Shown here: piece by piece, positions 27,341 through 62,747 of the stretch
Numbering within the stretch: the first letter of the stretch is position 1
Layout: each line of letters starts with the position of its first letter
Source of the DNA: Flaccisagitta enflata
Lineage: Eukaryota
Length of the DNA: 64,000 nt
NCBI GenBank assembly: GCA_965153355.1
Contig: OZ231126.1
Span: forward strand, 27,342,001-27,406,000
Direction: 5' to 3'
Program-made: the position numbers and the translations under genes
The notes under the pieces: generated by a model
What the model was told of the DNA's origin: nothing
Databases searched by the model: none
What the model saw: the letters and a program-made list of their open reading frames with translations, nothing else

Positions 27341-29017
27341 ATGACGCAAGAAACTCAAGTGCAGGGCTCCACCAGCGGGCCGTACGATTCCGCGGCGCAG
27401 ATGATGGCGTCTCTGCCCGGCGTTAGTCAGGTGACGTCGTTCTTCCAAGGTAATCCAATGGCGACACCTGTCGGACAAATGATTGAAAAGGCCACCGACG
27501 CCACATTACCCTCGGAAAATTGGGCCTTGAATTTGGAAGTGTGCGACCTGATTAACGACAGCGGGGAGAATGGACCGCGCGACGCGGTTCGGGCCATAAG
27601 AAAGCGCTTGCAAGTGAGCGTGGGAAACCGCAATTTCACCGTCGTCATGTACACGTTGACGGTGTTGGAAACCTGTGTCAAGAATTGCGGCCGACGTTTT
27701 CACGTTCACGTAGCGCAAAAGGACTTCCTAAAGGATTTGACGAACATCATGAATCCCAAGCACGATCCGCCGATCATCGTGCAAGACAAGATCCTCACCT
27801 TGATCCAGTGTTGGTCTATCGCGTTTCAAGGTGCCCCGGAGCTACGGGCCGCGGAACAAACCTACCAGGATCTCAAAGCGCGCGGCATCATTTTCCCCAC
27901 CACCGACATGGAAGCTGCGGTACCTATCATCACGCCCAGAAGGAGCACTCAACCCCCACCAGCCACCAATTCTAGACCTTCTCCGGCAAAGACCACCGCG
28001 CCGTCCAACGGCCAGCAATCCTTACCACAACATCACCATCATCCCCAACAGCCGGTTGACAGACCCCTCACCACGTCGCCTCACGGTTTGCCGCCCCAAC
28101 CATCCGTGCAGCAAATCGTCGAGATGTCCGGTCCCGTCGCGCCGACTCCGGACCAAATGGCCAAATTGCGCAGCGAGCTGGACATCGTCAATGGCAATAT
28201 CATCGTTATGGGCGACATGCTAAACGAAATGGTACCCGGCGAAGAAGACGTCGCGGATTTGGAGCTGTTGCAGGAGCTAAACCGAACTTGTCGCGCTATG
28301 CAGACTCGGCTTCTCGAGCTGATTGAAAAGATTTCCGTGGAGGAAGTGATTGAGGAGCTGTTGCACGTTAACGACGATCTGAACAACGTATTTTTGCGGT
28401 TTGAAAGATTCGAGCGCTATCGCACCGGCAAGACATCCAACAACGCCGCATCGGCCGAAGCCAACGCCAGTCCTCACGTCAGTCCTAGTCGTAACAACGC
28501 CGAGCGGCAGCAACCAGTCTCGCCGCTCATTGATTTATCATCCAACGCCGTTCCTGCCGTTGCTGCCGACGCCGAGGAAGACGTCGCTCGTCAATTGGCT
28601 TCCCTCGGAATCGTAGATTCGTCGCCGGCGCCGCGACCTGATGGCGCTCAAGCTGTTGGTGGCGCCGGTTTCAACGCCACGGAGGACGAATTTAAGGAGA
28701 TGGAAGCCTGGTTGGGTGCGACAGGCGGCGACGGTGGCGCCGGAAGTGTCGCCGTCAGCGGCAGCGTCGGCGCAGTCTCCAGTTCCGAATTTGACGATTT
28801 CCTCGCTTCTCGGCTCGGCGTTGGTGCCGACAGCGTTGCAGCTGCCGGAGGCGCCGTTTCGAGCGCCGACACCGTGTCCGGTGGCTCTTCATCATCCCCG
28901 GCGGTGATTCGTAGCATCGGCGATGTTCCGTCCATCTCTGCCACCTCGGGAGCGGTGCCCAGAGTGAACAGAACACCGACGAAGAAAAACGAAGATCAAG
29001 ATTTACTTCTTGGCTGA
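27341..29017 (+). CDS. TOM1: TOM1/TOM1L2-like VHS-GAT adaptor, uninterrupted CDS
   Basis: 558-aa ORF with VHS domain (ENWALNLEVCD, LTVLETCVKNCG), GAT domain (KLRSELDIV..ELNRTCRAMQ..LLHVNDDLNNVF) and C-terminal EMEAWL and SSEFDDFL motifs. Confidence 0.92.
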   Translation: MTQETQVQGSTSGPYDSAAQMMASLPGVSQVTSFFQGNPMATPVGQMIEKATDATLPSENWALNLEVCDLINDSGENGPRDAVRAIRKRLQVSVGNRNFTVVMYTLTVLETCVKNCGRRFHVHVAQKDFLKDLTNIMNPKHDPPIIVQDKILTLIQCWSIAFQGAPELRAAEQTYQDLKARGIIFPTTDMEAAVPIITPRRSTQPPPATNSRPSPAKTTAPSNGQQSLPQHHHHPQQPVDRPLTTSPHGLPPQPSVQQIVEMSGPVAPTPDQMAKLRSELDIVNGNIIVMGDMLNEMVPGEEDVADLELLQELNRTCRAMQTRLLELIEKISVEEVIEELLHVNDDLNNVFLRFERFERYRTGKTSNNAASAEANASPHVSPSRNNAERQQPVSPLIDLSSNAVPAVAADAEEDVARQLASLGIVDSSPAPRPDGAQAVGGAGFNATEDEFKEMEAWLGATGGDGGAGSVAVSGSVGAVSSSEFDDFLASRLGVGADSVAAAGGAVSSADTVSGGSSSSPAVIRSIGDVPSISATSGAVPRVNRTPTKKNEDQDLLLG

Positions 29018-29948
29018 CAGTGACGATTTTGAAGGAGATAAATATTAGCGACTTAACAAGGAGAAAGCTTATTAAGTGTTTAATGGTGAAATTTATCTAA
29101 TTCGCGCTCGGATATCGAATTTTTGCCACTTGACTTTGGAGAAGTTGAAACACTTTTTCTCTTTTTTTAACACTGTGGTGCACGCACGATACTATTGACT
29201 TGATTGTTTCGATACTTCATGTATTTAATCATTTGGTGATCGACGAGTTTTTGACGTTGTAATTTGAATCTAGTCACAAAAAACACATCCTTCTGCTTCG
29301 CCTGTTTTCTCTAGTGTATAGCTCGGTACTTTTTGCGTATATTCTCTCCGGATGCCATTGCAGCTTACTGAATTGACGATTGCTTTTCGCGCAGATGGTA
29401 AAGATGGAATGAAAATGCTGAGCTCTATGGTACTTCAATCATTTTCTCTTTCTCTCTCTCCTTGCTAGTCTTTTTGAAGAATGCAGAAAAATCTAATGGA
29501 AAGATACCTTACGTACTAAAAGAAAACCTCTATCAGCAAGTTCGATACTGTTAAAGATGTAATATCTATTGTGTATGAATTTTGACGCTTTTTTCCTGAT
29601 CTACTACTCATTTGAAAATTGTTATTCGTGACTATTTTGGAGTTGAAATCCGTAACTCGTGTGTCAAGATTTTTCGATTGTAAAAAGAAATAATTAGAAT
29701 CAAATCGCTTAGTAATGCGCCTAGATGGAAATGATGAATGTTCAATCTTATGTCGCGCATATAAGATGGAAAGATAAATCAAATCTCTTGATGTAATGTC
29801 GCGCATATTTAGCTTAATGGCTCGCTGATAAGAATGAAAGAGTTGAGAAGAGAAACTTTTGATGTTCTTTTTCTATATTTTCAGATTCAGTCGGTGAATT
29901 ATCGTATTACATTTTCATCACATGACGTTAAATCCTTACTATGCAAAG

Positions 29949-32650
29949 ATGAATGCCTCGATTGTGTCGTCGGTAGTTTACGTCTCAATTGTCTATGGCA
30001 TTTACAAAACTGTTTCTTTTGTGTGGAATTTTGTCGGATTGCGCAATTGGTTTGCCGATCAGACCTGCCCTTCTTCCGCCAGAATTGATGGGAAGGTAAA
30101 ACTATAAAAAACCGCTTCGACTGAAGCCCGATCAGCCAGGGTCTTCCTTTAGTGATCTTCAATTGACTCTTTACATAGCAACATAATCAAAGTTGATACA
30201 ATTAGTTGAAATCACTATGCACAGCTCGGATGAATGGGCCTTATGAGATTCGTTGCTGGCCTAGCTTAGCTCACTGAACTGTCATTAGGGAGAGATGCAT
30301 ATAAATAGAACGCGACCGAACTTAAGAACATAACAGCAACAATCGATATGCGGATGTCTTAGTCCTCACATTTGAGTATGCACGTATCCGTCATTCAGGT
30401 TGTGCTAATCACCGGTGGCAATGGCGGAATAGGCGCCGAAACTGCGAAGGGGTTGTTGTCGAGAGGCGCCGTGGTTTTCATCGCGTGCAGGCACGTGGAA
30501 AGGGCCGAAGCTGCGAAACGCTCCATTTTGGATCACGTCAAACATATACCTGGGTTGGTTCAGTGACTCGCTGGTCGTTGGTTCTTCTGGTGGCACGAAT
30601 CTTAGTGTAAGCGTGTTAACTAGTTATGTGGAAGGGCTTCTGACATTACCCTTCTGCCTTCCTCCATTCTACAGCGCCGGCGTTCGCTTGCGTCTATTAT
30701 CCCTGGATCTGTCATGTTTTGCCTCAATCCGCGCATGCGCCGCGCAGTTTCGCTCTCTTTCCGATCGTTTAGACATCCTAATTAACAACGCAGGCGTCAT
30801 GATGTGTCCCTTTCAAAGGTGGGGGCGATGCAATGGATTACTGATCCATGACTGATCATCGGCATTTTCCTTTCTGCTTTGCTTTCTTTCGGCCTCTCTT
30901 TCTTTCAAGAGTTTTTCTCAGTTTTCTTTTTTCTTGTTTTCTTTGTCTTAATGGAATGGTCTCCCTTTCTGTCTTCGTTTCTCTCAGTCTTTCTCTCTTT
31001 GTCTCCGTTTCTTCTAGTCTCTTTCTTTCTCTTTGTCTCTGGTATTCTTCGTACTTTCTTCTAGTTTCTTTTAGTATTTGTCCTGTCTTTCTTTGAGTTT
31101 CTTTCTTTGTCTTTCCTTGTCTTTCCTCCCAGTCTTTCTTCCGTATTTCTTTCTCCCAATCTTTCTTCCAGTCTATCTGTCTTTTATCGTCTTTTATCTT
31201 TCATTAAGTCTTTGTATGTCTTTGACTTTCTTTCCGTCCTTCTTTGTCTCTCTTTCCGTCCTTCTTTGTCTCTCTTTCAATCTTTTAATTTCTTTCGATC
31301 GTTCTTTCTAGCAGTCTTTCTTTCACGAAGTCTTTTCTTTCTTCGTCTATTTAATATCCCCTTAGTTATTTTATCCTGACTCATTCCACCTCCTCAACCA
31401 GCCGGGATGTTTTGTTGAAGGTCCGCGGATGGTATCGAATTGCAGATGGCGACCAACCATTTGGGCCACTTCCTCCTTACCAACTTGCTTTTGGATTTAC
31501 TTGGTAAGTTTTTATCGGCGTTTTATCATGTTGTAAGACACGAATAAGAGACCAAAGATGATTGCTCCGTTTTCCAGAATTTTCTGTGCCTTCTCGCGTT
31601 ATCAACGTGTCTTCCGTGGGCCATTGGCTGGGCTCGTCTAATTTCGAAGATCTGGAGTATCTGCACTCTCGTTACGATCCCACTTTGAGTTACGCTCAGA
31701 GCAAACTCGCCAACCTCTTGTTTACTTCCGAATTGGATCGTCGACTGCGCGCGCGTCGAGTGGATGGAGATGACGTCACTTTCGGGATCACTGTCAACGC
31801 CTTGCATCCGGGAGTTGTGGACACACCGTTGTTTCGGCACGTCTGGCTGGTCGCCAATCCCGTGTCGGAGATGATATTGCGTCCAGTTCGGTAGGGAAAT
31901 TATGTGACATGTCCTTTTCATGAAATTGGGGAGTTGGGATGTTAAAAATACAGGCCTGTATACAGTTCTACATTCCCTCTTTTCCCCCCCCCCTCCCCAA
32001 TCAAAGGGTTTGGAAATGGGGAAAAAATGTAAGGGGGGAAAAAGAGAAAAAAATTTTGGCAGTACCAAATCATAAAAACACAATTTGATATTATTTATAT
32101 TTTAACACTGTTTTATTGCTGTTTGATTAAACACTGTTTTATTGCTATATGTGGAAGAAAATCTTAGATTTTGTAATGTGAGGTGATGCGTCGCGGGGAA
32201 GAAAATCTAAGGTGGGGGAGGGGGGAAATTAATCAAAGATTATAGAACTATATACATCCCTGTGAAAACGTACGCCGCACACTAGCTAAGCATAGTACAC
32301 CATAGAATAAAATGCTATTTATGGGGTTGACAACGCCTCTGTTGTGATTGTCCAACATCCCTGACATTCTCGCAACGACGATCAGGTTTATGATGGAGAA
32401 AACTCCTCGATTGGGCGCTCAGACGAGCATTTATCTCGCCGTGGCGCCGGAATTGGAGGGCGTCAGCGGGAAATATTTCTCCGATTGTAGCGTCGCTCGC
32501 GTCTCGCCGAACGCCGCCGACCCAAGATTGGCGCGGGAGTTGTGGACTATCAGTGAGAAACTCGTCGGGTTAGACGAGACGGAAAATGTTTGGAAGAAAG
32601 AAGCGAATGGGACGCCGATTTCAGCGGCAGTTAGAACGAAGACTGATTGA
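29949..32650 (+). CDS. Retinol dehydrogenase-like short-chain dehydrogenase/reductase (RDH11-14 type)
   Basis: Exons 29949-30095, 30399-30553, 30675-30818, 31421-31503, 31578-31890, 32386-32650. Motifs [24 protein letters not shown], catalytic YAQSK, HPGVVDT, GKYFSDC. Confidence 0.92.
31951..32262. mobile_element. ~310-bp hAT MITE family, copy 2 (RDH intron)
   Basis: CAGGCCTGTATA ... TATACATCCCTG with shared internal sequence. Confidence 0.8.
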
Positions 32651-33091
32651 TTGCTCGTTCATAATGATATGATTGCAAATTTGATTAATTGCAAACACGA
32701 TTTGTGTTGAGCCGGGTGATCATAGAAACTCGGAAGCTTGAGATCTGTGTTCCACAGATCTGGTCGATATCCCTGACCAAAACTCTGAAGATGGCTGTTT
32801 GTTGATGCCTTACGCGTGTCTGGTTGATTTAATTAAGATGTGATATCTCGGGTGATATCTGATATTATACGCCTTAACTTCCTGTATTGATTTCATTGCT
32901 CATTATGAATATAATTCACACATTTACACCAAACGCGTGAATCGCGTGATAATTTAAATTGACAATGAATAGTTTCCACAAAGCATGCAATTGCTTGATT
33001 TATTGATAAAATTACTACTGGTCAGTGCTATGTTTCTGGAGAAAAATTTGGCACGATAGTTGCAGAAACAAAACAACGGACTGCGTCAACG

Positions 33092-36000
33092 ATGAAAACT
33101 GTATTGATGGTGGCTGAGAAGCCTTCTTTGGCCCAGTCACTCGCGTCTATTCTGTCGAACGGAAGTCATCATAGTCGAAAGGGTTTCAACGGCGCTTGTT
33201 CCGTTCACGAATGGACGGGACCATTCAACAGTTTCGGACAATGCAAATTCAAAATGACTTCCGTCTGTGGTCACGTGATGAGTCTCGATTTTCTAGGTTG
33301 GTCATTGTGATCACGTACTTCTTTAGTATAAGTGGTCAAGGAAATGAGCGATCTCCTTAAATGAACGTACAGTGGGAACCCGATTTAACGACCTTGAAGG
33401 GACTAAAGAATTTTGGTTGTTAAATCCGAGTGTTGTTAAATCGAATTTATAGTTTTAGAGGCATTTAGTTCAGATGGTTTTGAAATATGCTTTTATAAGT
33501 TTGTAGATGTATTAACGATAGTTTTTGTGCAACTGGCCAACAAACTAACATATAAAGCCAAAGATGGAATTAGCATAACATAATTTGTACATTATAGAAT
33601 GTCACATGTAATGAATTTCACATCAAATTGTTTCAAATAAAACAGATTATAAACCTCTTAGTTTATGATATGGCATTACTTTTGTAAAATATCTGTTTGA
33701 CACAGTCTATATTTATGATGGAGAGTTACAGTGCAAATTTGCAAAAGACAACAATTTTGCTTAAAATATTTACTTTCACATTGGGTATCATTATTAGAGG
33801 CAGAGAAAAAAAGAAAAAGGAGAGAGGTCTTTCTGTTTAATTTTTCAGCTCTTGTTTCAAATATTTGAGTGTTAATTTCTAACCTATTTCTATCTTGTAT
33901 TTTTTTTACAAATACGTTAGAGCATGTTAAGACCAATCAGTATTCAAATCAAAATTTTCAGTTAAAACTATCTACTTAGAATTTGATGTCACCAAATCAG
34001 GTTAAGGTCATCTATGGGACTTAAAAACAGTGACTTAAAATCAGGTTTGGATGTTAAATCAGGTGTTGTTAAATCGAATAAATTTAACATTACAAAAGCC
34101 TGCAAAAATTTGGGACTAAAGAAACTTGGCTGTTAAATCCGAAATGTCGTTGAATCAGGTGACGAAAATGCGGTAGTCCACTGTAATCCTAAAGTAGCCT
34201 AGGAAATCAGTGTTTCACTTGGATCGGGGTCAGGTTTGCTAGGAAATAAGATTGGGATTCATGGGATTGAGGAGAATTAAATACGATTTCAGCCATTTGC
34301 AATCAGTATTACATCGGTTGTCATTTTTGTTAAGTGCTAGGTTTAGGGACACATAGTATATTTCTCCTTGTTTGTCATTGCACTCAGCGAAGTACAACAA
34401 TTGGGACAAGACCGATCCTAGCGAATTGTTTCACGCTAACACTGAGAAGAAAGAAGCTACCGCCAAATTACAGGTTAGTGTAAACTGTGGAATGGGACAT
34501 CGATGCCTGCGCGGTTTAACGATGACGGTAGCGGTGCGGAAAGATGACTTTGTCGGGGCCTCGGCAGGAAACGATGACAATAGCGATGATGGCCATTGCT
34601 TTTCTTGTGTCAAATTGAGAGGGATTTATGACTATTTGTTCTTGGAGAGGAATTGATGGGCTTTTTTCTTGCGACAGCGATTGTGATAGAATGCTTTCCA
34701 CTTGTCGGTTTCTGTAGATGCCACGATTCTTAACTTCGGAAGGAAAGAACGTGGATGCGATCGTGCTGTGGTTGGATTGCGATAAAGAAGGAGAGAACAT
34801 TTGCTTCGAAGTTCTTGATTGCGTCCAGCCGGTGATGAACAGGAGCAATCGTGACCAAACCGTCTTTAGAGCCCACTTTTCAGCCATAACGGACTCCGAT
34901 ATCAAAGCGGCTTTCAGGTGAGATCGCCATGGAATATGGATTAACGGCCATTAACCAGAAGCTTGCGGTTGGGCTGGGGAAATGTGCTGGTGGGCAGGGG
35001 CAGTTAAGCGGGTTGATATGGGCTGTATGTTGGGGGGGAGGGGCTATAATGTTCCGAAGTCGCTGCCCCGGCCAATTGCGCCGCATCCAAAATTTCGCGT
35101 AACGGACCTTCGGACAGACACACCCGCGTAGTGGTGTAGGTAGCTAGATATCAATCGCTGCTCATGGCTCTTATCAGTCCCGTCAGTTCTGCCTCTTACA
35201 GTCGCATAGCAAGCGACTGAAAAACTACATCCTACTTTCTCCAAACTCAGAGAATAGGACTACCAAGTTACCAACTTGTTTCCCTGGCCTTGTAATTCTT
35301 CTCATCTTCTATAATATTAATTCTCCTACATTTTTATCAACAATTGTTTTTATTAATTCTACATTGTTTGCCCCATTTATCCCATCTTGTTCTCACCCCA
35401 CCTTCTCAGGGGTTTATATAATTGAGTGGCTTTTGATTTTTCCCCCCCTGCCTTTGATTTTCTTCCCCGCGATGCATCGCGTCGCATTTTTATATCTGAT
35501 TTTCTTCCCCATAGAGCAACAAGACTATGTAGTTAAAGATTAAATAGTGTTAAAATGTGTTTTTTTTTAATTAGGTTTTAAGATTTAGTACTGTCAATAG
35601 TTATATTTTCCCCAAATTTCTTTTTTTTTTTCTCTTTTTTTCCCTGTTTGATTTCCTTCCCCATCTCCAGACCCTTTGATTTCTCCCCTCTCACGGGGGG
35701 GGGGGACTTAATTATATACAGGCCTGCACCTTCTCACCCCTCCTGCTCCCATCGCCCCTTCTTTTCCTCCTCGCATTAGGAATTTGGGGGTCCCGAACAA
35801 GAACGAGGCTTTGGCGGTCGATGCTCGTCAAGAATTGGATTTGAGGATTGGCTGCGCCTTCACCCGATTTCAAACCAAATATTTTCAGGTTCGTGAGGTC
35901 GAGTCAATTGAAACCAGGTCAACCCTATTCTATAACACGAGCTTCCTCTCTCGAGTTTCATCCTCTCTGACCACCCTCCCCCCGCAGGGCAAGTACGGTG

Positions 36001-39000
36001 ATCTCGACTCCTCCTTAATCTCTTACGGTCCTTGTCAAACACCAACTCTGGGATTTTGCGTCGACAGGCATGATAAAATTCAATCATTCAAGCCGGAGCC
36101 TTTTTGGGTACCCCAAGTGAGTATCTTAAATTCTTTAATCTCCCACCGAGGTTAATAATTAATTGAAACGAATTGAATTTAAGCAGAGCCGATTTAAATG
36201 GAGAACAAACAACCAACACTCAATCGAAATCCAGAAGGCAGTGAAAATTATTACTGTATTTTCATTACGGTAGCTGTAAAGCAGAATAGGAGACGGTGGG
36301 GTAAAATGGGTCCCCTTGGGGTAAAATGCATCACTCACTTTATTCGGCCCTAGTATGAGTTTGAGCACAATTTCCCTTTTCATCGAAAACTAGACACAAT
36401 AAACCTTCCTAAGGAAGGCTTCCTTTATCATCAAAATTGGCAATGATTCTTTGATTCTTAGGGAAAAGTGGGTGACCCATTTTACCCACCTCTACCATAA
36501 TTTCTCAAGTTGTCTTTCCTCGTCTCCCTCTTCCTCCAAATTTCAGGTTGAAGTCGTAACATCGTCCGGAGCGTCGGCATTTCCAGAATGGGATCGCGTC
36601 CGTCTGTTCGACAAAGACGTCATGCATTTGTTCTTGACGCAAATTCGGTCCGCGTCCACCGCCAAAGTCACTTCCGTCGTGGCCAAGGAAAAGGCCAAGC
36701 AAAGACCGCAAGCGTTGAACACCGTCGAGTTGCTCAGGGTCGCCTCCTCCGCGCTGGGCATGAGTCCGCATCATACCATGCAGGTTGATTACCGTGATAT
36801 GCGGATATAAGTCTATACGCGTTGAAGCTATGTTTCGACTCTGGAAAATTTGTGTCGCTCTGAATGTTTTGTCATGAACTGTCCCTGTAATTTCGCATTG
36901 AATACACGCACTTGGCTGAGTAACAACCTTCTTTATAACAACGTTGAGGCTCAAAATGTCAAAAAAATAAGAACATTTCTAGCAACATCGTCAGCCTCAG
37001 AAAATCAAAAATATAACAACATTTCATCCTCAAGTCCAACTAATAACAATTTTTTTCTCAGATTTGCTATAACTTCCGTTGCATTCAATTGTAACATTTG
37101 GCGGTTTCATAGAAGAGGTGACTTTTTCTACTGTATTTCAGTTTAAAACAATATTTTGTTCCTGATTTTGAATGGTTGTTCTCCTTTATCGGGAAAAAAG
37201 TCGAAGTCAGTCTTCGACTTTTTGACATATTCGAGAGAAACAGGGTTTTCATTTTCTTATGGGAAAGTTGTGCATCTCATTCGGCTGATTGGGGCCTCCA
37301 ATGAAATTTATAGGGTAAGTAAATTTGATTATTCTCTTTCATTTGGCACCAAGCAGAATTCTCTACGACAAATATTTTTCGCGCTATGATTTTTTAAAGA
37401 TTTATTTATGAAAATTGCGAATGGAATTTTTTCGATTTTTTATGATTTTGAGTAGGATCAAAAAAGGAGTGTATCTATGTTTGTTTGAGCATGCAAATAC
37501 AACAAAACATGTTTATGAGAATTGCTGCTCATCTGTAAGGAGAATTCTAGCTCATTTAGCTCATTTAGCTCAGTTTTTTTTTTATTTAAACGTGATAAAT
37601 GAATAGATATTTTGATACATATTTAAGAAAGCAGATACAAAAAGCATATCAGTGAGCATAACTGCTCATCTGTGAGGGTGTTTTTAAGCATTTTAGCTCA
37701 CTTAGCTCATTTAGCTCAGTCTTTTTTTTCTGATTTTTAATGGGATAAATAAGTGTTTTGATAGGAGCATGTAAATACAAGAAAGCATGTCAGTGAGCAT
37801 AGCGGATTGTCTGGTTGAATGATTTTGAGCATTTTAGCTCATCTAGCTCATTTGGCTTGGTCCTTTTTTTCTCTGATTTTCAGTGCAATCAATACAATTG
37901 CTCTAGATTTAATCTAATTGAAAAAAAGATTTGCAGTGACTAAAGATAAAAGCTTGGTGAAAAGAGACCAATGCTTACGACTTTTTTCCTCACGGCGACA
38001 GCCGCCATTACTGGTACCCTAGATCCCTGTCATTCCAGAGAAAGCAGCGAAAGGAATGATGGTACAAATTATCCTTATCAATCGCTATGTATTAGAAGAC
38101 TGATGAGAAAAAAATAACAACAGTTTAGCAACGGTTTGAGCCTCATATCGTCTTTCAAATAACAACATTGAGCCTCAGAAAAAAATAACCCGTTGTTACT
38201 CAGCCAAGTGCAGGGGGGCAGCGGTGGCCGAGAGGTTAGAGGGTATGGCTCGAGAATTGATCGTTTACAATCGTTTACAATCGTTTACAATCTCTCTCGA
38301 GCGTACCGGGTTCGAATCCTGCACATTCTTGGGCTCTCGGCGTAAGTCGAGCGCCCGTGAATAGGCCCGGCTGTAACCTGGTGAAAACCATTCAGAATTC
38401 AAAGGAGAAGGAGGACTCCTGATAGGCTCCCACCTGCACACACAGCCGACCGCAAAAATAGAATGTGTTATTAATTGGGTAACCCTGAGTAACTCATCGG
38501 GCTCAAGACGAAGGTTGAGAGTTCGAGGTGTTAAAGGAGGAGAATCCTAGGCGCTGGGATATCTGGGCGAAGGTCCGGAATTCTAGCATAGGAAACAAAT
38601 GCCCACTGTAATCAACACGGTGTTTCGGTAACCCCCCGCCGTCACCAGCCCGAAGCACGTAGGAGCTCGCTCGCTGTGTATGGGTAAAAATCTTAAAAAA
38701 AAAAAAAAAAAAAATTCTCTATTTGTCTTAGGTAGCGGAACGACTTTACACGCAAGGATTTATCAGTTACCCACGAACAGAAACCACGCATTACCCGGAA
38801 AACTTCGACTTGCGATCTCCGCTCAAGGCACAGCAAGGCAACTCTATCTGGGGATCATACGTCAGGGATTTGCTCAGCAGCGGTAAGAATTTTCATTTGA
38901 GTGTGGATTCGCGGGTTGGACGCTTTTGAGAATTTGTTAAAGATGCTGATTACAGAATGCTTTCGAAAATTACATGGAATGACAGGAATTACGGACTATT

Positions 39001-40189: not shown

Positions 40190-40241
<52 letters not shown>

Positions 40242-40265
40242 TCATTTTTTCTTTCTTTCATTTTT

Positions 40266-40300
<35 letters not shown>

Positions 40301-40501
40301 CACTCACTCACTCACTCGCTCACTCGCTCAACCCACACACTCTCTCACCCACCCACACACTCTCTCACTTAGTCTTACACACACACTTTCACACACACAC
40401 ACACACGCACGCTCACTCACTCACTCACTCACTCACTCACTCACACACACTCTCACGCTCTCACACTCTCACACACACACTCTCTCACTCACTCATTCAC
40501 A

Positions 40502-40569
<68 letters not shown>

Positions 40570-43558: not shown

Positions 43559-43630
<72 letters not shown>

Positions 43631-46715: not shown

Positions 46716-46778
<63 letters not shown>

Positions 46779-51232: not shown

Positions 51233-51291
<59 letters not shown>

Positions 51292-52359
51292 CTCTTTCTC
51301 TCTTTCTTTCTTTCATTCTCTTTTTCCTTCTTTCCCCCGCCCCCTTTTTTCCTCAATTTTTTCTTCCTCAAATCTATAAGTCCGACTCTTGATCTATGGA
51401 TCCTAGGAACGACGTTCCCGGCGTTCCCCTACTTCTGCCACCCTGCTCTGGAATATGTCAGAAAGTCGAAGACTGACTTCTACTTTTTTCCCCGATGATA
51501 ATTGAATGAATTATTGATAGATTTCTTAGCTTAGTAAATCATAGGTATTGGTTGACTGACTGTGAAATTGGTTGATTGACGCAATAGCGATACTAACGTT
51601 ACTTGTCTTGGTGTCTTTAGGTAGGCGTATCGGATGACGCTTGCGACGATTGCGGGGCCTCGTTACTCGACGTCTCCTTCAATAAAAACAAAACGCCTCT
51701 TCAACACGGCGAAACCGATCATTCCGGATGCGTATTTTGCGATCCTTTATTACAGGTATGAAAGCCTCAACACCTGAGTACTGGCTATGTCTTATGAATG
51801 GGATGCTATATGTATGGCAATCGTGAGTGAGGCTGACAAATGTTTAATACGTCTGCCAGGGTGCCTAGAAAAGCCAAAATCGCACTTCCCTGGCAAAAAT
51901 TCTTTTCTTTTGCAAAAATTCTTTGAAATGAGCCATTGGCAGAACTCTATTCAACCAGGAACTATTGTTAGGCTATGTATATTTCCATCATATAAGTTTG
52001 GGTTCCCAATTGGTTTGAAAGTCGCTCCATAGCTCTTTTAAAAGCATTTTTGCTTAGGAAAAAAGTTATTTGCAGGGGAAAGTCCAATCTTGGTTTTTTG
52101 GTTACCCTGGCGAACGAAATGTATAAGCATCGCTTGTCCACATTCCGATCTCTTCGTTTACGAGCCACGTTACCATGTTCTCTCAAATTATCTTAAGGGT
52201 TTGGTTGAGATTAAGCACGCGTCTCGAAGCCATCCCAACTTCTCCCGCGGTGGTCGAGGTGGACGCGGTCGAGGGCGCGGTCGAGGGCGTGGAAGAGGAA
52301 GAGGCGGACGACGAGCTCCCAAAGATAAAATGTCTCAACTCGCCGCTTATTTCGTTTGA
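33092..52359 (+). CDS. TOP3B: DNA topoisomerase III beta, 16 coding exons
   Basis: Exons 33092-33296, 34388-34473, 34718-34917, 35780-35888, 35988-36116, 36547-36783, 38732-38882, 39096-39281, 40603-40703, 40966-41198, 41335-41419, 41660-41896, 42044-42175, 42316-42510, 51621-51755, 52198-52359. Motifs [15 protein letters not shown] (TOPRIM), catalytic [16 protein letters not shown], Cys-rich C-terminus, RGG box and terminal [10 protein letters not shown]. Confidence 0.96.
33370..34183. mobile_element. pogo/Tigger-like MITE
   Basis: TA|CAGTGG ... CCACTG|TA with repeated subterminal GTTGTTAAATC motifs. Confidence 0.72.
35407..35726. mobile_element. ~310-bp hAT MITE family, copy 3 (TOP3B intron)
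   Basis: Perfect 8-bp TSD CACCTTCT. Confidence 0.88.
36908..38211. mobile_element. TIR element hosting the intact Helitron
   Basis: Perfect 20-bp IR GCACTTGGCTGAGTAACAAC (36908-36927) and GTTGTTACTCAGCCAAGTGC (38192-38211). The SINE abuts the right end. Confidence 0.75.
37189..38014 (+). mobile_element. Non-autonomous Helitron, uninterrupted copy
   Basis: Starts A|TC, ends with GGCGACAGCCGCC hairpin then ATTACTGG|T. No TSD. Collinear with the inverted, fragmented copy at 42581-51495. Confidence 0.8.
38213..38714 (+). mobile_element. tRNA-derived SINE with poly(A) tail
   Basis: Pol III A box TGGCCGAGAGG (38225-38235), B box GGTTCGAATCC (38309-38319), ~380-bp non-tRNA body, A20 tail 38695-38714. 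Confidence 0.8.
39372..40085. mobile_element. TA-flanked MITE
   Basis: TA|CACTTTTTTCATTTTATAAGCAC ... GTGCTTATAAAATGAATTAAGTG|TA. Confidence 0.78.
40140..40566 (+). repeat. Compound microsatellite (CTTT)n/(CACT)n/(CA)n/(CT)n
   Basis: Direct reading; ends ~35 nt upstream of the TOP3B acceptor at 40602. Confidence 0.9.
42655..43064. mobile_element. TA-flanked MITE inserted in the Helitron
   Basis: TA|CCAC..AAAAAAAAAGACGCAC ... GTGCGTCTTTTTTTTT..GTGG|TA; absent from the intact Helitron copy. Confidence 0.78.
43229..45367. mobile_element. Second copy of the CAGGGTGGCAGAA hAT-type family, opposite orientation
   Basis: Termini TAGGGTGGCAGAA and TTCTGCCTCCCTG. Subterminal sequence matches the 45923-51445 element in reverse. 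Degenerate TGCATTT duplication at the flanks. Confidence 0.75.
44455..44960. mobile_element. Palindromic foldback MITE
   Basis: ~240-bp inverted arms, e.g. AGGTCAATTTTTCGATCCCCATGGCCTAAGGTTCT and its reverse complement. Ends approximate. Confidence 0.7.
45923..51445. mobile_element. hAT-type element (TIR CAGGGTGGCAGAA) containing further insertions
   Basis: 13-bp perfect TIRs and a perfect 8-bp TSD CTCTGGAA (45915-45922 and 51446-51453). Confidence 0.88.
45978..50718. mobile_element. CAC...GTG DNA transposon with ~115-bp TIRs and 4-bp TSD (Chapaev/CMC-like)
   Basis: Termini CACGATTCGTAATGAATGGG and CCCATTCATTACGAATCGTG, with ATAA on both flanks. The paralogous hAT copy (~45303-45335) shows the empty site. 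Superfamily is inferred from termini only. Confidence 0.75.
51857..52109. mobile_element. Small degenerate CAGGGT-terminated MITE
   Basis: Imperfect ~45-bp IRs; no clear TSD. Confidence 0.55.
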
Positions 52360-52707
52360 CGGATACGCGTTTTAAGCTGAATACTTTGATTTCAAGCTGT
52401 ATTTCGATAATCAATTGTTTCAATTTGTTTGATTCTGTTTAGTTGATTTTCCTCATTTGGGATTATCCTTCGTATTGGATCTTCCAAATTGTATTTTGAT
52501 CTAAGTATTTTCGATCGCTTTTTTCCATCCTCCTTGTCTGGGGACCACGCATTATTTATTACACCAGCGTTTTTATCATCATCAATCTCATGTTACGTTA
52601 TCTATATATTTTCAATTCTTTACCCAGGCCTTCAACCCGTGATAAGACTCAATGTATCGGTAATACTCAATGGTTATTTTTGTGTAAATGAACTACTGAA
52701 GCCGACA

Positions 52708-53675
52708 ATGACATTAACAGCCTCTGCCGTCAAGTTATTTCGACCATTGGTCATTTGCGGTCCCTCTGGATCAGGAAAATCCACGATTTTGAAGAGGGTG
52801 TGTATACAGTTCTCATTCTATGTCACTGCAAATGGATTTTACGCAGTTATCCAATTCATTTATCTTGCCATATTCTCTCTTCATGATTGCAGGTAATGAA
52901 TTCGGAGGCAGTAAAAGAATATCTGGCCTTTTCCGTTTCGCACACAACTCGTCAACCGCGTAAGGGGGAGCAGGATGGAAAAGATTATCATTTTGTCTCT
53001 CATGATAACTTTAACAGGGTGAGCCATCGTAAGATAATGATATCTTTGCGTCTTCACATCGATTGAATGTTTGATTGAATCTCGGTCGAAACCGCTGTTC
53101 CATCTCGTTCTATTCAGAGCGTGTCCGAGAACGCCTTCGTGGAGCATGCCGAGTTTTCCGGCAACCAGTACGGCACCTCCAAAGAGTCCATACGAAGATG
53201 TCAATTATCCGGCAAACTCTGCGTCTTAGATATCGATTCTCAAGGAGTGAGAAGTCTGAAAAAGACGGATCTCAATCCGTTCTACGTCTTTATTCTTCCG
53301 CCTTCCTTGGAGGAATTGGAGGTACTCAGGCTCTGTTTGTAAGATTTTATTGTTAGAAAAGCGAATCTCTGTGGCATTCAGTCATTTGCTAAGTTTAACT
53401 GATCAAACATTCGCCATATTATCATACATGCAAGCTATCGTCAAGCCTATTCTTTATTCCTCTTCCTCTTCCTACTCCTCTTCCTCCTGCAGCGCCGCCT
53501 TCGCGGTCGTCGGACGGAATCCGAAGAGTCTCTTCAGCGTCGACTGTCGACCGCCAAAAGCGAAGTCACGTTTGGTCAGACGCCGGGAAACTTCGACGAG
53601 ACTATCCTCAACGACGACCTAGATAGAGCCGTGGAGAAGCTCCACTCCATCGTCCTCAAACTCATCGCCGACTGA
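52708..53675 (+). CDS. GUK1: Guanylate kinase
   Basis: Exons 52708-52797, 52893-53018, 53118-53321, 53493-53675. P-loop [50 protein letters not shown]. Confidence 0.93.
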
Positions 53676-54122
53676 CCAACGTATTGACAGTATTGCAGCT
53701 CGGTGAAAACCAATGCGTGCCTTCTTTCAAGACAGTGACAACTCTCTAGAGAAAAATTCCTGGGAATTCCCTCGTTCTCATAATAGGAACTCTATGGTTA
53801 TCTATCTATTATCTATTTATTTTCATAGTCTTCCCAACGTGTACTTCCTCCATGGAGTATATGCCACCTCTTCCGCGTTTCGTTTTTTCAGAGTTTTATA
53901 GATTCTAGTCAAGTTTTGGATGTTATTTTCATTTACTCATTCCCGCCATACTCTTATAGAAAATAGCATTTTTGATTTGGTGTTCTTTCTTTCCTTTGCC
54001 GTCGTCTTGTTTTTTTGAAATTTTGTGTCGCATTTGCGTCTTGTTTAGTCTTTTCCTCTAATAATCAAACCCTCAGAAAATTGACTATAAGAACCTTTTA
54101 CTTTTTATTTGAAAATTAAACT

Positions 54123-55769
54123 ATGGGGCACGACATTCATTCGGCGCTTTTGTTAAAAATCGGCTGTTTTTCCCGCCTCATCGTTTTCTCGCTCCAGCTG
54201 CTCGCCAACTGTCTTCCCAATCACAAAGCCGACGCGTTCAATCCTCCAACCACGCCAACTTTCAACTCTACTTACTCTTCCATGATGGACTCATTCGTCC
54301 ACGATGGTCTCCTTCAGGGTTTCGCCAAGTGGGACAGTCTTCATTTCCTGCACGTCGCCGAGTTCGGTTATCTATTCGAGTCGGACTTGGCGTTTTTCCC
54401 GGGATTTCCGTTGACGCTGCGATGCGTCGACGCCGTCTCGCTACGTCCACTTTTCGGCGCCGTTTTGCGGACGCGGACTCGTTTGCTGCTCGGCGCTTTT
54501 ATCGTCAACAACGCCGCCTTCGTTGCGTCGGGGATTCTCTTATATCATTTGTATCGTCGATGGTTTGTTCCAGCCCCGACGGCCTTTATCGCCGTCGTCA
54601 TCTTTTACTTCAATCCGGCGTCCATTTTTTTCTCCGCGATTTACTCCGAGACTCTCTTCTTCGCGGTTTCTGTAGCCGCTCTTTCTCTTTATTACAGACG
54701 TCAGAAAGCCTGGGCGGCTTTGTTCTTTTCCTTTTGCGCCGTTATCCGCTCAAACGGCGTTGTTTTCTTAGGCTTTTTCTGGTTTTCTTGGCTAAACAAT
54801 TTGTATAAACTGTCAACCGCCACGATGATGTCATTGACAGAACGACTCTCACTCGTCGCGATGGAATCGATCAAAGCGGTAATGTTTACCGGTATTGGTC
54901 TTTCGCTGTTCGTCACGTATCAATTCTACGGCGCCTTCTTATTTTGTCACCGACGGTCAGAGACGTTCGACCAATTTCCGGCGCACTTACGGCAGATGGC
55001 GGCCGAGGACGAAGACGCTCTCATCGTCGGCGCTCATCGGATGATTGGAATCGGCGCCAAGACGTCGACGCCGGATGTTAGCGCCGATATCAAATGGCGT
55101 CTGTCGCCGGTCGCCTTTCCTTCCTGGTGCGAGAAGACGATCCCGTTCTCATACTCGGCCGTGCAGAATCAATACTGGAATCTCGGCTTTCTCGCTTATT
55201 ATCGCCTCAAACAGATTCCCAACTTTTTCCTCGCCGCGCCCGTTGTCGTGATCACGTGTCTCAGCGTCATGGATTTCGCGCGTGCGCACTGTGAGCGTCG
55301 GAGGATGGACAAGAAAGGCTTAAAAGAGACGATTCTAGAGTTGCTGTTCGTCGATTATCTCGAGAAAATGCAACGGGACGAGAGAGAAAACGTCGACACT
55401 GATGACGTGAAACATCGTCCTCGTTCATCTTTTCTACTCTCCGCAGATTGCTTTCCATTTTACGTCTATACATCGTTTCTTTTAATCTTCGGATTGTGCT
55501 TCATGCACGTGCAAGTGATCACAAGAATGCTCTTTAGCTCCTCGCCTATTCTGTATCTCTTCATGGGATCGCAATTTCTCGACGCGGCGGATTACAATGA
55601 CACGAAAACCCTAGAATCGGGGTTAAAGGAAGAAGGGGTCGTTCAGTTGTTACGCCGGATCATCCACATGGCTACAAACTCTCGTCTTCAGAAAGCGCTG
55701 TTGTTATATTGTGGTTTCTATTTCGTAATCGGTACATTACTTCATTGTAATTTCTTGCCATGGACGTGA
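54123..55769 (+). CDS. PIGV: GPI mannosyltransferase II
   Basis: 548-aa multi-pass ORF with KWDSLHF, AFFPGFP, NPASIFFSAIYSE, RSNG, YWNLGFLAYYRLKQIPNF, HVQVITR and terminal NFLPWT. Confidence 0.93.
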   Translation: MGHDIHSALLLKIGCFSRLIVFSLQLLANCLPNHKADAFNPPTTPTFNSTYSSMMDSFVHDGLLQGFAKWDSLHFLHVAEFGYLFESDLAFFPGFPLTLRCVDAVSLRPLFGAVLRTRTRLLLGAFIVNNAAFVASGILLYHLYRRWFVPAPTAFIAVVIFYFNPASIFFSAIYSETLFFAVSVAALSLYYRRQKAWAALFFSFCAVIRSNGVVFLGFFWFSWLNNLYKLSTATMMSLTERLSLVAMESIKAVMFTGIGLSLFVTYQFYGAFLFCHRRSETFDQFPAHLRQMAAEDEDALIVGAHRMIGIGAKTSTPDVSADIKWRLSPVAFPSWCEKTIPFSYSAVQNQYWNLGFLAYYRLKQIPNFFLAAPVVVITCLSVMDFARAHCERRRMDKKGLKETILELLFVDYLEKMQRDERENVDTDDVKHRPRSSFLLSADCFPFYVYTSFLLIFGLCFMHVQVITRMLFSSSPILYLFMGSQFLDAADYNDTKTLESGLKEEGVVQLLRRIIHMATNSRLQKALLLYCGFYFVIGTLLHCNFLPWT

Positions 55770-56696: not shown

Positions 56697-59600
56697 ATGG
56701 AAGTACCGCAGGAAGATATCGTGGAGGAGACGGCGTCTGCACCTCCGGAGCCTCCGACCGAAGATACCCCTCTGTTGAAGGCAACGCCCGGTGAGGCCCA
56801 GTATCTATATGAAATTTGGACAACATTACTTCTCTTACCGTATTTTACTAAAGGTTTAATCCGGACCCATCAAAACCATCTTTTGTAGTTACAACCAAGT
56901 CTATCTTCACATCAAATTTCTGGCTAACTCTAGCTTTGCAAGGTCCCGGTGCCTTACTTTGAGTCTTTAACATATTGGTATGGCTTATGTTGATTGCCTT
57001 TCTTCTTACATTCCAGTGCCTCCAACCAGCGACTCTGTGTCTGCGTTATCGGCGTCTTCCGGTATTCCCATCGCCATCGTTCATCCGTCGCGTAACATCG
57101 ATCCTTTGGACGCCGCCAGAAATCGACTGGACAATCCATATCAAGATGAACTCCATGGTTCCGTCACCGCCTCGAGAGCCGTCAATAGGTTTGTGAAGGG
57201 AACGAATGTCAATCGAGTAATGCACGTTTGTTATTAAAATTCATCATATCACTCAGGGATCTTAATATTGAAGTTAAGCACCATCATGATGACCGTAATT
57301 TGCGCCTGAAGGGAGCCTGTGAAGAGACAGCTTGCCGGCTTTCTCGGAGTTGCAGCTGCCATATGTTGACGCTAAAGCCTGAAAGTGTGCATGGGGTACA
57401 ATTCATTCAGTCGCATTATTTTCTTGCTTCGAGATTCTTGATTTGAATCTACCAAAATGTTTTATCTTTGGGTCGCTCTCAGTTCGTCGCATCGCGTTCC
57501 CGGTTACGGCTCCACTGTTTGGGCGGAAGATCGTATCGACGATAACGTGTTGCCACCGACGCGGACGCTCAAAAAAGGGGCCACCTCTAATTTACAAACA
57601 ATGACGCACATCTTCAAGGGAAATATCGGCACCGGGATTCTCGCCATGCCTTATGCCTTCTCAAATAGCGGTGGGAAGCATGTTGTGCTTAGGTTGTCTA
57701 CTTGCCCATAGATATTTCAATTTATCCCTTATGAATCTTAAGGGTTTTAAAAGCGCTACGGTATGCCCAGAGTTTATGAGACAGTGAGGGGTAATTCTTC
57801 TCTCCCTACCCAGGTGTATGGGCGGGTTTTGTCGGCACAGCGGTTATCGCGTTCATCGCCATTCATTGCATGCGTCTGTTGGTGGAGTCTTCGCACTACC
57901 TCTGCCATCTGACGGGCCGGGAAACCCTTGATTACGGATACTGCATGGATTTTGCTTTCAAGAACGTCGAAGGTACATGATTGGATGCTCAATAAGCGTA
58001 CGAAGAGCTTTATCTCATGAACGTGTGATGTGTATATAACTTTCTGAATCTATATCAGACATTCCTGGTAAACTACGTCTATTGTTGTTTACAGGTGGAG
58101 GCACGATAATCAAGAAAACTGGCCGATGGATGCGCAAATTGGTGAATCTCTCGTTACAAATTACTCAGTTTGGTTTCTGCTGCGTCTACTTCGTCTTCAT
58201 GGCCGACAATATCGGTCACGTCGTCAATAATCACTTGTATGGCTCCAACCACATTGACCATGGGCTTTCATCTAGGGTGGGTTTTTGTTAGTTTGCCCTT
58301 TGTACGCCTAAAATCCTTTTCAACGAATGCGAAAGTGACCAAATTTCGATATTTCATGTAGGGTGGGTTTTTGTGAGCTTGCCCTTAGTACGCCTAAAAC
58401 CCTTTTCAACGAATGCGACAGTGAACAAATTTCGATATTTCTTTTCTTTTATTGATAATTCAGTTAATTTACTAAAAAAGATTGAAATTACCAGTCCTTT
58501 AAGATCCGTTATTGCGGGATGGAACCTTTATTCTTTTGCTTTTGATGGATCCATAACAAACTCAATCAATAATACCTCAATACCTCAGTAATACCTCGTT
58601 TGTTTTATCTTCTTTCTCAGGTATACATGTCAATTATTCTTCCATTCGTTCTCGCATTATGTTGCATTCGCTCCGTTCGGAAGCTGTCCTATTTCTCAAC
58701 TTTCGCCAATTTTCTGTGTCTTGCCGGTTTAATCATTGTCTTCGCACAACTACTTCAAGATATTCCTTCCATCGATTCCGTCCCGGCAATTGAGACGGAT
58801 TATACAAGATGGCCTCTGTTCTTAGCCACAACTATCTACACGTTCGAGGTCTGTGATGGGATGTCGTCGATGGGCTAGAGTCTAGGATGTCATTGGTAGG
58901 GCGATAGGGCGACATTTTATTCTCAGGTCACCAAAATGTTCTATAAATCGAATTGTAGATCTATCTTATTGATAATATACATCAGTCGGATGAAGCTGGA
59001 ATTGTTACCACAACTGCACCAACGGAGTATAATTATTGATGGTTGGCTGATTTCTATTCAGGGCATCGGCGTCATCTTGCCGTTGGAGAACAAGATGAAA
59101 AACCCTCAAGCGTTTCTTCCGTGGAACGGCGTCTTGAACACGGCCATGATCATCACTTGTTGCCTTTACATCTCCGTGGGATTTTACGGCTACCTCAAAT
59201 ACGGAAAACACTGTCTGGGCAGCATCACTTTAAATCTGCCGTCGGATAGGTGGATCAACGACGTACGTGAAAGGGCTGATTTTGATCGTTTAACTACACT
59301 GCAGGCGTGTGTATAGTTCTACATTCCCCCACCCTCCCCCCGTGGGGGGGGGAATTCATCAAAGGGTTTAAAGATGGGGAACAATATCTAAGCGGGATGA
59401 TAGAGAAAAAAAATTTAGGGAAAATAAAACTTTTGGCAGTACCAATTGATGAAAACTGATTGGTAAAACGCAATCTGACACTATTTAAACCTTAAAAACA
59501 GTTTTATTGCTATATGGGGAAGAAAAACAGATTTTGTAATGTGACGCGGGGAAGAAAATCAAAGGCGGGGGGAATTAATCAAAGGTCATAGAACTGTATA

Positions 59601-60509
59601 CACCCCTGCTACACTGGTTTGCCTGTCCAATGAACTTGGCAGCATTCAATTGAGTTTAATCCATTGTCCATCACTTGTTTCCTTCGCAGGCGGTGCGTGT
59701 TATGTTCTCGGTGGCGATGTTTATCACTTACGCCCTGATGCTGTACGTCCCAATCGAGATCATTTGGCCCATTTTGCGCAAGCGAGTTAAAAAGGACGAA
59801 TGGAAAAAACCTCTCGAGCGTGTCTTTCGATGTTTTCTCGTCGTTTGTACCTTCGCCATTGCCATCGCTATACCACACTTGGGTAATAGATCTGATTGTA
59901 GACACAGATGATTGCTGAATTTGATTTCATGAGTGATTAGTTATTTCTCATGGCCTCCTTCAACAAAATTGTTCGTCTTAATCTGCTTTTTTGTCCTAAT
60001 CCTTGTCACCCGGACGAACGATGGACATCAATGTCTAATGAACTTCATTCATCATAAAACCGCGCTTATTTTCAGGTCCCTTCATCTCGTTGATCGGCGC
60101 CTTCGCTTCCAGCAACTTGGCTCTTATGTTCCCCGTATTGATCGATACGTTGGTTCGGTGGCCATCGCGCTTCGGGCCCTGCCGTTGGCGTCTCATCAAA
60201 AATATACTCATTTTCTTGTTTGGATTGGTCGGTATGTGACATGGTGCATTTTCTTCTTCAGTGAATTCTCAATTTTCTATTTGTAGGCATAGTTGTTCAA
60301 AATTTTGGTGTTCCTATTGACGGTAACATCGTATGTACATCGTTTCATCATCATTCTTCCTGGCCGCAGGATTCTTTTTCGGAACGTGGCAGTCCATCAA
60401 CGAAATCATTTTGGCGTTTCACAATGAAGGTGGCAACTCGACGGTGGCGCCAACCGTGTTGCCGTCAACTCCAATACCGATCTTTCCAAATGCTTCCGGC
60501 ACACACTGA
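56697..60509 (+). CDS. Proton-coupled amino acid transporter (SLC36/PAT family)
   Basis: Exons 56697-56790, 57017-57188, 57483-57670, 57814-57972, 58095-58276, 58621-58848, 59062-59262, 59690-59882, 60076-60231, 60370-60509. Motifs KGNIGTGILAMP, TQFGFCCVYFVF, FE|GIGVILPLENKM, GSITLNLP. Confidence 0.92.
59302..59608. mobile_element. ~310-bp hAT MITE family, copy 5 (SLC36 intron)
   Basis: Perfect 8-bp TSD CTACACTG. Confidence 0.88.
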
Positions 60510-60731
60510 TAGTATAATTGCCACCTTTCCCGCAACAACTAGATTTCCGAGAGATAATTTGTAGCTTGATTTTGTTAGCGTAGATGGGGCTTGGTCTATT
60601 TATTCCTCACCTTGCCATTCGAACAAATCTTTTGTGCGTTGTATCAACGCATGTTTTAAAATTTCAAGATCACCAAAATGATCAAATTGATCCTAGATAT
60701 CGTCATCTCAACATGCGGTTTTAGTTGTCTA

Positions 60732-61134
60732 CAGTTGCAATGAAAATACAATGCGAGGAGCCGCAAAATCTCTAGCAACCCCCCTTTGCAGCTTTTACTA
60801 TAAATATAATGGGGATGAGTGAAGTGGTAGAAGTTAGTTTACCTCAATTCGATTTCCGCCACCAAGGTGATTTTTGAATTTCCTCATAGTACTTACAATA
60901 ATAGCTATAAAAGAGCAAAATTCAATACTTGCAAAAATGGTTGATTTTGATCTTTTAAAAAGTAGTTTTTTTAAAACTAGGTTGAAATGCAAAAATCACC
61001 TTGATGGCGGGAATTCTATTGGAACAAGCCATCAGCTGCTACTTTAAAAATTGATGTAGTATTGACTATTTAAGCTGCAGAGGGGGTTGCTAGAGATTTT
61101 GGCTGCTCCTCTCGTTGTATTTTCATTGTTTCTG
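60732..61134. mobile_element. Palindromic TA-flanked MITE
   Basis: TA|CAGTTGCAATGAAAATACAA ... TTGTATTTTCATTGTTTCTG|TA, with internal AAAATCTCTAGCAACCCCC IR. Confidence 0.8.
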
Positions 61135-61970
61135 TACGGGTTAGACAGCTAATTGCAAAAAAAAAAAGTGAAATGGCGTGAATTACCCATGCCAGTTAAG
61201 TCGAGACTCGAGACTACTTGACTAGACGTAGTATCGTACAATGCGAATTTGTTAGCGTTATTAATTTCAGTCTTCTGTTGATCACGAGACGTAGATATTG
61301 GAAATTTTATGTATTTATTTGACCACAAGATAAACTTTGTTAGTCAGGTTTTTTATTTTAACTTCTAGCTCTGTCTGAAGAGGGCGTTTTCAGTTATATA
61401 ATCGGATCAATGGTTGATAAATTTTTAGATTAGTCCTTTGGGTAATAGACATCTTCTATGTGTATGATTAAAAGTCTAGTCTTATCTTGTTCTTGAGGTC
61501 ATACAGTAGATGGTATTTAAGCGATAATCAACCACAAAGATAGCATTTCCTCGGTATCGTTCGATCTTCCTTTTTGCAACAAACCGTTTGGGATTAATTG
61601 CCCCTACCTCTGCTGGCAGACTAGGCTTCAGTGATCAGATTTTAGCAATCAGGACACTGTCTGCTACTGACAACTTTTTTTTTCATTTCCGTGTCCATTT
61701 CTCATTTAAACAGATTGTTTCTATTATCCATTCCATTTTCCGTGGCCCACCCTTTCCCTATTGTATCCCTTTCTTCATTGATTGTGTCCCACCGCAATTC
61801 TTTGCTCATTCATTCTCTGAAGGAGAACTACGATGCATGACTTCTCTCTCTTGTGTGAAGTTCACCGTCGCCACATCGCTAAATCAGACCGCATTGCGAC
61901 CATATTCCCGCATCTGCGCCGCAGTTAATTGAGGGAAAAACCTGAGCTAATTGGTATTCGTAGAATAGTG

Positions 61971-62747
61971 ATGGACGAACGACGGCATAAACGTCCCCGT
62001 CGTTCGGATAGATCTCTTTCCACTGAGCGGGAGGAAGATCGGAAGAAAGTAAGTGCTGCGGCTGATTTGCCAAAAATGTACTGACTGCCATATGTCAAGT
62101 ATATGTCGTAGTTAGTATATTGTGGCTTCCTGTTTCACCTTCTTTCGCGTCTCATTTCGATACTTCCATTTTCCATCTCACCCTCATTCTTTCGTGTGTT
62201 TTTTTCACGTTTTTCACTTTATCCATCTTTCCTATGTTCCTTTACATCTTGTATCCCAATTTCCGCTCATGGAATCTTCTTGTTTGCTACCTGTGGAAAG
62301 AGGGCGCGCGTGCCGCCTAAAGCACCCGCTTCACGCGTTGTTCACATTCGGAACATATCATCGGGAGTCGACGAAACGGACGTTATCCAACTTGGGCTGC
62401 CTTTTGGGAGGGTATCAAACATTTTAATGCTCAAACAAAAGAATCAGGTGAGAAAATAAGTTTGAGTGGACGAAACGTTTGAGTTGGCGTTAGAGCATGG
62501 ATATCTTTGAACCTGGCTGTCAATTGATCAATCTCGTCGTTTAAATTGCATTTCCAGGTATGCGGATCCCTCTCTCGCAGGCCAGTCATCTCACATTTAA
62601 ACTCTTTCCCTATTTTCCCATCAATTTTCTCCTGCTTCATTTTAGGCGTTTCTTGAATTCGAACGAGAATCATCCGCAAAGACGATGGTCGAATACTTCG
62701 AGAACTCGTCCCAACCAATGATTTGCGGGCGAACCGTGTTCGTGCAG
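61971..62747 (+). CDS. Polypyrimidine-tract-binding protein (PTBP family), 5' part only; gene continues past window end
   Basis: Exons 61971-62048, 62301-62447, 62646-62747 give a basic N-terminus and an RRM1 ([44 protein letters not shown]) closely resembling PTBP1 RRM1. Confidence 0.85.

Follow-up and report, generated by a model that had tools for sequence, protein, structure and literature searches.

The locus described here raises the question of whether unrelated housekeeping genes that follow each other on one strand in the chaetognath Flaccisagitta enflata are expressed separately or as polycistronic units resolved by spliced-leader (SL) trans-splicing. The stretch analysed, hereafter the window, comprises 64,000 nucleotides (nt) of contig OZ231126.1 (assembly GCA_965153355.1; contig positions 27342001-27406000); coordinates below are window positions unless another locus is named. 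It carries seven genes on the + strand, in the order TOM1, RDH, TOP3B, GUK1, PIGV, SLC36 and PTBP, which an earlier annotation made from the letters alone (the sequence-only reading) had proposed to form one polycistronic unit. On balance, the evidence points to two or three short SL-resolved operons, i.e. TOM1-RDH, TOP3B-GUK1-PIGV and perhaps SLC36-PTBP, and not to one seven-gene unit, with TOP3B-GUK1-PIGV as the core; the locus is a probable further example of the housekeeping-gene operons already published for chaetognaths.

Genes and intergenic gaps

The order, strand and positions of the seven genes, as proposed before, were confirmed by Pfam matches (VHS and GAT for the TOM1-like gene, SDR for RDH, Toprim/Topoisom for TOP3B, guanylate kinase, PIG-V and Aa_trans), by an exon comparison for TOP3B, and for PTBP by an exon downstream, outside the window, that matches PTBP1/2. 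The TOM1-like gene (27341..29017) consists of a single coding exon and is followed by a short-chain dehydrogenase gene (RDH-like, 29922..32650) with a first in-frame ATG at 29922 and a second at 29949. TOP3B (33092..52359) is a multi-exon gene with a longest intron of 9.1 kb, and is favoured over TOP3A as its identity (exon match E 6.5e-35 vs 3.9e-13). The guanylate kinase gene (GUK1-like, 52708..53675) has three introns of 95-171 nt, and PIGV (54123..55769) has one coding exon; the nearest protein to PIGV in a large protein collection shares 40% identity, and no relatives were found in Joint Genome Institute (JGI) metagenome contigs. The gene for an SLC36-like amino-acid transporter (56697..60509; Aa_trans) is CpG-rich upstream, and the 5' part of PTBP (61971..64000) belongs to a gene that extends approximately 30 kb past the window and whose two exons inside it gave no Pfam match. 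Farther upstream on the same strand lie a TBC1D30-like and a TLC-domain (TLCD5-like) gene (8683..20142), which are separated by an 874-nt gap; the latter ends 7.2 kb before TOM1, with a reverse transcriptase (RT) open reading frame (ORF) of a long interspersed nuclear element (LINE) in the interval (21422-23569). A zinc-finger gene is oriented divergently upstream of TBC1D30. The names RDH, SLC36, TBC1D30 and TLCD5 were retained from the sequence-only reading and are supported to the family level only.

Adjacent genes of the run lie on the same strand with nothing in between, as in operons. The stop-to-ATG gaps from TOM1 through PTBP are 931, 441, 348, 447, 927 and 1461 nt, precisely the lengths reported before; a start of RDH at its in-frame ATG 29922 would reduce the first gap to 904 nt. 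The RDH-TOP3B gap (32651..33091, 441 nt) is single-copy and contains three CGCG motifs, which may mark an internal promoter, and the GUK1-PIGV gap (53676..54122, 447 nt) is T-rich. No repeat matches were obtained for the four shortest gaps in the organism's own genome (one of these searches scored 40 of 368 candidates), and the SLC36-PTBP gap contains an inverted-repeat element resembling a miniature inverted-repeat transposable element (MITE; 60730..61136, unstranded). The motif AATAAA, previously noted as missing from the three shortest gaps, is missing from all six (0 in 4,555 nt, where shuffled sequence would give 2.55; P(0) = 0.064); it occurs eight times on their reverse strand. The distance from the preceding stop codon to the candidate acceptor discussed below is 268 nt for GUK1, 216 or 401 nt for PIGV and 867 nt for RDH.

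The sequence-only reading had also set the short gaps against introns that readily reach several kb. Some introns do exceed 1 kb (5 of 34 donor-acceptor pairs, two of the 34 being mis-paired), with up to 9.1 kb in TOP3B; the statement is overdrawn, as the median is about 250 nt. The gaps are not below this typical intron length, and the argument was dropped.

Splice acceptors and spliced leaders

Acceptors were scored with a position weight matrix built from 33 cis acceptors of the window, and compared with the best AG in each of 113 intron-interior 150-nt segments (median 4.4) and with 500 shuffles. All five AGs singled out earlier as acceptor-like exist at the named positions, and two of them are strong: the unpaired 3' splice site before RDH (29860..29884), a candidate SL acceptor, scores 11.1, a value reached in 0/500 shuffles, and that before GUK1 (52603..52627) scores 9.5 (shuffle P = 0.026). 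The other three are at chance level (33065, 2.4; 54076, 2.4; 61963, -0.3). The GUK1 acceptor lies 268 nt past the TOP3B stop and 80 nt before the GUK1 ATG, and the short upstream ORFs (uORFs) noted before in this interval are real: there are three, each 3-5 codons long and, with a T at -3, in weak context. The 52628-52707 interval can be read in the GUK1 frame without a stop codon; this frame has no ATG there, and GUK1 may carry an N-terminal extension with a non-ATG start.

For PIGV, the best acceptor is located further upstream (53891, score 10.3) and is followed by one uORF in weak context; nearer sites at 54048 (4.2) and 54076 are weak. A candidate acceptor for TOM1 (27253; score 8.5, P = 0.07) lies 87 nt before its ATG, with no upstream ATG (uATG) in between, and two sites before PTBP, 61822 (7.3, P = 0.14) and 61924 (6.3, no uATG), both outscore the named 61963. 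TOP3B is preceded by weak AGs only (33065, and 32757 with 4.7). SLC36 has no AG in the 128 nt upstream of its presumed ATG, and the nearest decent AG is followed by six uATGs. Among the downstream genes, RDH and GUK1 accordingly have strong acceptors and PIGV and PTBP plausible ones, whereas TOP3B and SLC36 have weak ones or none. No upstream donor reaching the cis median was found for these acceptors, save one at the MITE edge before PTBP. A strong AG at 27132 was discarded as an acceptor because it comes from a repeat with a poly(A) tail, whose 3' end occupies 26906..27142 (+ strand; six other copies).

The leaders themselves are encoded in this genome. SL motifs tabulated for chaetognaths in PMC2481426 were used for exact searches of the genome with reversed controls; 151 copies of SL3 followed by GT, 79 of SL3 followed by non-G and 276 of SL1 were found, and none of the controls. 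The SL1 and SL3 forms are identical, over the 20-25 nt searched, to forms in Table 3 for Spadella cephaloptera (PMC2481426). Many motifs sit in tandem arrays with a unit of approximately 730 bp; the one unit examined (L010, G000:C3:84831653-84834675) carries a gene for each of the two SL RNAs, SL1 and SL3, approximately 365 nt apart, and a GTRAGT donor follows both leaders. In the fold of the SL3 gene, this donor lies within a stem, and a 3' hairpin is present. Multicopy SL RNA genes that comprise leader and 5' donor, a feature of organisms with SL-resolved operons, are thus present. The SL1 and SL3 genes of the unit have similar 3' hairpins, and no canonical Sm site is obvious. Neither 5S nor another Rfam family was found beside the unit, no Rfam family matched in the SL loci or the window, and no SL motif was found in the JGI metagenome contigs. 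Of the sequence words in 52000-55800, two marine metatranscriptome runs contain a share of 0.32 (X1) and 0.20 (X2); the shares in four further runs (X3-X6) are small and were not used as evidence.

SL-headed genomic copies record that this organism joins the SL to mRNAs at unpaired AGs, which is another feature of the operon class. The clearest case is an intron-less retrocopy of La/SSB (Pfam La and RRM_3) from which seven introns are removed and in which the SL abuts base 1 of the first exon of the parent gene, exactly past the parent's AG. This parental acceptor, an AG in a T-rich context, precedes the ATG by 68 nt and scores 8.8 (P = 0.044). An HSPA9-like gene on the same strand has its stop codon 448 nt before the parent ATG, with no AATAAA in the gap. 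Both genes belong to a separate + strand run that also includes hnRNP-like and cyclin C-like genes and further ORFs, the names being taken from translations. This genome therefore provides a case of trans-splicing at a downstream gene whose gap is close in length to those of RDH-TOP3B (441 nt) and GUK1-PIGV (447 nt); polycistrony does not follow from it, even at La.

Among 144 SL-headed loci, 23 have a longer version elsewhere, and in 14 of these an AG is present at the junction; the remaining nine are mostly explained by overlap with the leader's own end. Six distinct junctions with a pyrimidine tract score 6.4-10.3, and the acceptors at RDH (29884), PIGV (53891), GUK1 (52627) and TOM1 (27253) are within or above this range. 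AGs within transposon 5' ends that receive the SL score -1.4 to 4.5. Three loci were discarded as sources of parent acceptors: L016 and L030 are transposon-like, and the nearest other copy of L078, in which the SL is fused to sequence from within a myosin-tail coding region (Pfam Myosin_tail_1), is 78% identical.

In five loci (L014, L029, L038, L109 and L145), an SL-headed piece of 50-110 nt recurs 270-790 nt away, inverted in four of the five, and the second copy stands directly after a strong genomic acceptor; such local duplications possibly represent reinsertion of trans-spliced cDNA. Most SL-headed loci (L003-L040, L072-L111, L133-L202) resemble retroelement 5' ends. Their ORFs gave matches to LINE endonuclease or RT in 4/53 and 5/45 cases, some to PHD, and mostly none in Pfam; we take these ORFs to be LINE ORF1. 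A hammerhead-like core follows the SL within 25 nt in 12/78 and 5/70 loci (L018, L033, L080, L082, L088, L198 and others), and none of 12 was confirmed as a hammerhead with Rfam. Penelope-like elements reportedly carry hammerheads. The same retroelement families are headed by both SL forms; SLs on transposon transcripts have been described for Hydra in the part of the report consulted (PMC12220107).

Proposed operon structure

For short operons, we infer the following course from the arrangement of genes and acceptors. Part of the cluster would be co-transcribed by RNA polymerase II and then cut to single mRNAs: the 3' end of the upstream gene would form within the short gap, and an SL1- or SL3-type leader from the tandem units would be trans-spliced to an unpaired pyrimidine-tract AG 40-230 nt upstream of the next ATG. 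Promoters before TOP3B and before SLC36 would split the run. Some neighbours are probably co-transcribed, on the strength of the acceptors at RDH and GUK1, the one further upstream at PIGV, and the SL RNA genes and SL joining found in this genome; to this extent the earlier proposal stands. A single seven-gene transcript is not demonstrated, because weak sites account for three of the AGs named for it, good acceptors are missing close to the ATGs of TOP3B and SLC36, and the co-oriented neighbours RAB1 and FAF2-like likewise lack one.

Several observations weigh against this interpretation even in its short-operon form. The acceptor matrix derives from a local training set of 33 cis acceptors; a score of 8.5 is reached by chance in 12% of the intron-interior segments; the acceptors of TOP3B, SLC36 and, near its ATG, PIGV are at chance level (P = 0.39, 0.55 and 0.70, respectively); and under strict correction for multiple testing over nine genes, RDH alone passes. 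Five of the six calibrating SL junctions are local duplications and not annotated genes. No SL-headed or processed copy of a gene of the run was found among the 144 SL-headed loci, nor any processed copy in five own-genome searches over parts of the run (the PTBP start and most of TOP3B excluded), which returned self matches, repeats and one 62-nt match to a GUK-like exon only; blastn and tblastn of the SL-headed loci against the window gave no match at any 5' junction. AATAAA is not significantly depleted (P = 0.064). RAB1 and FAF2-like, with gaps of about 1.2 and 1.4 kb, lack a good acceptor, and the 3' region of RAB1 carries AATAAA. The same-strand run of seven is compatible with chance (P = 0.16; 26 hand-called genes in 264 kb).

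It is somewhat unlikely that these are compact monocistronic genes with a promoter in each gap, of which some receive an SL in place of a short outron, as nematode SL1 genes do, and others receive none. SL addition alone is insufficient to prove polycistrony, because about half of the genes of Paraspadella gotoi are trans-spliced (10,197/21,072) and 18% are in operons, according to the portion of that study consulted (PMC12460157). Separate promoters would also fit the acceptor-less SLC36, TOP3B and RAB1, the latter co-oriented as well, and the MITE in the SLC36-PTBP gap. In an exploratory count, CGCG occurs twice upstream of RDH and three times upstream of TOP3B, vs 0.36 per 350 nt in introns; the counts are two for TBC1D30, two for RAB1, three for FAF2-like, none for SLC36, and 0-1 for La, HSPA9-like, GUK1, PIGV and PTBP, so that CGCG is commoner before acceptor-poor genes, with RDH and SLC36 as exceptions. 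However, a 3' UTR, a terminator, a promoter and an outron would all have to fit into gaps of 348 and 447 nt, the GUK1 acceptor follows the TOP3B stop by just 268 nt, and AATAAA is absent from every gap. A run of ten co-oriented genes, i.e. the seven plus TBC1D30, TLCD5 and an unnamed ORF that follows PTBP, also speaks against independent genes (P = 0.018, uncorrected for window selection).

The same statistic would favour one long operon of seven genes, or of nine or ten if TBC1D30, TLCD5 and the ORF that follows PTBP are included, in which a single upstream promoter serves all genes and even the poor AGs before TOP3B, PIGV and PTBP act as acceptors. SLs do land on weak AGs at transposon 5' ends, the zinc-finger gene divergent from TBC1D30 would provide a plausible head-to-head promoter region, and a nine-gene operon, the longest reported, exists in P. 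gotoi (PMC12460157, as consulted). We nevertheless consider a long operon unlikely in view of the missing AG and the six uATGs before SLC36, the transposon-bearing 7.2-kb gap ahead of TOM1, and the MITE ahead of PTBP. Its most far-reaching form is improbable: a nine- to ten-gene operon of more than 85 kb, whose multi-kb introns and gaps are filled with transposons, equal to or beyond the longest reported chaetognath operon. As LINE and other retroelement families are routinely headed by SL1 or SL3, read-through and trans-splicing might then replace promoters for host genes and retroelements alike.

Short SL-resolved operons would resemble those of P. gotoi, where, in the sections of the report consulted, unrelated co-oriented housekeeping genes are combined with several SL forms, operons are enriched for metabolic housekeeping functions, and no operon-specific leader is described (PMC12460157). 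There, operons were defined by genes less than 250 bp apart (annotated ends) together with SL reads, whereas the stop-to-ATG gaps here are 348-1461 nt and the genome is repeat-rich. TOP3B, PIGV, GUK1 and TOM1 are not mentioned in three supplementary PDFs of that report, whose operon list is a separate file. In S. cephaloptera, the excerpt consulted describes an SL-resolved RPS14-PCNA operon with three bases from poly(A) site to acceptor (PMC2481426). Nematode and tunicate operons are likewise polycistronic RNA polymerase II units resolved by SL trans-splicing, with intercistronic distances ranging from 1 bp in Ciona through about 100 bp in Caenorhabditis up to 517 bp in Trichuris muris, and SL-bearing genes include monocistronic ones (PMC7986045, in part). 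Unlike in nematodes, no SL2-type specialisation is reported for chaetognaths in the partial sources consulted, and the SL sequences are unrelated. No account of chaetognath operons outside P. gotoi and S. cephaloptera was found in the literature searched, which mostly excludes subscription papers.

If confirmed, the locus would extend chaetognath operons from two studied species to a repeat-rich genome with SL1/SL3 leaders, and would offer a concrete test locus for 3' end formation without AATAAA. No concept is altered, since housekeeping-gene operons are already documented in the phylum. The by-products may be more useful, i.e. the tandem gene unit of SL1 and SL3, and the SL-headed retrocopies as a genomic fossil record in which actual trans-splice sites can be mapped independently of RNA data.

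Flanking region

Leftward of the run, on the minus strand, runs of genes extend from window positions 1-4433 into the adjoining loci L046-L050 (zinc finger, RRM gene and unnamed gene; RRM copy, RAB1 and FAF2-like), so that long directional gene blocks flank a divergent region near 4500-8600. Window positions 12701-26723 have an inverted duplicate in L048-L049, 17.6-28.2 kb upstream of the window, with 97.6% identity over 8.9 kb; it comprises TBC1D30 minus its first exon and TLCD5, and lacks the LINE. The intergenic gap of this duplicate diverges by 3.3%, vs 0.2-1.3% in exons, and the inverted copy is either a real duplication or a haplotype artefact. Approximately 90-100 kb downstream, two ORFs of 439 and 1913 amino acids (L060) probably belong to a long terminal repeat retroelement.

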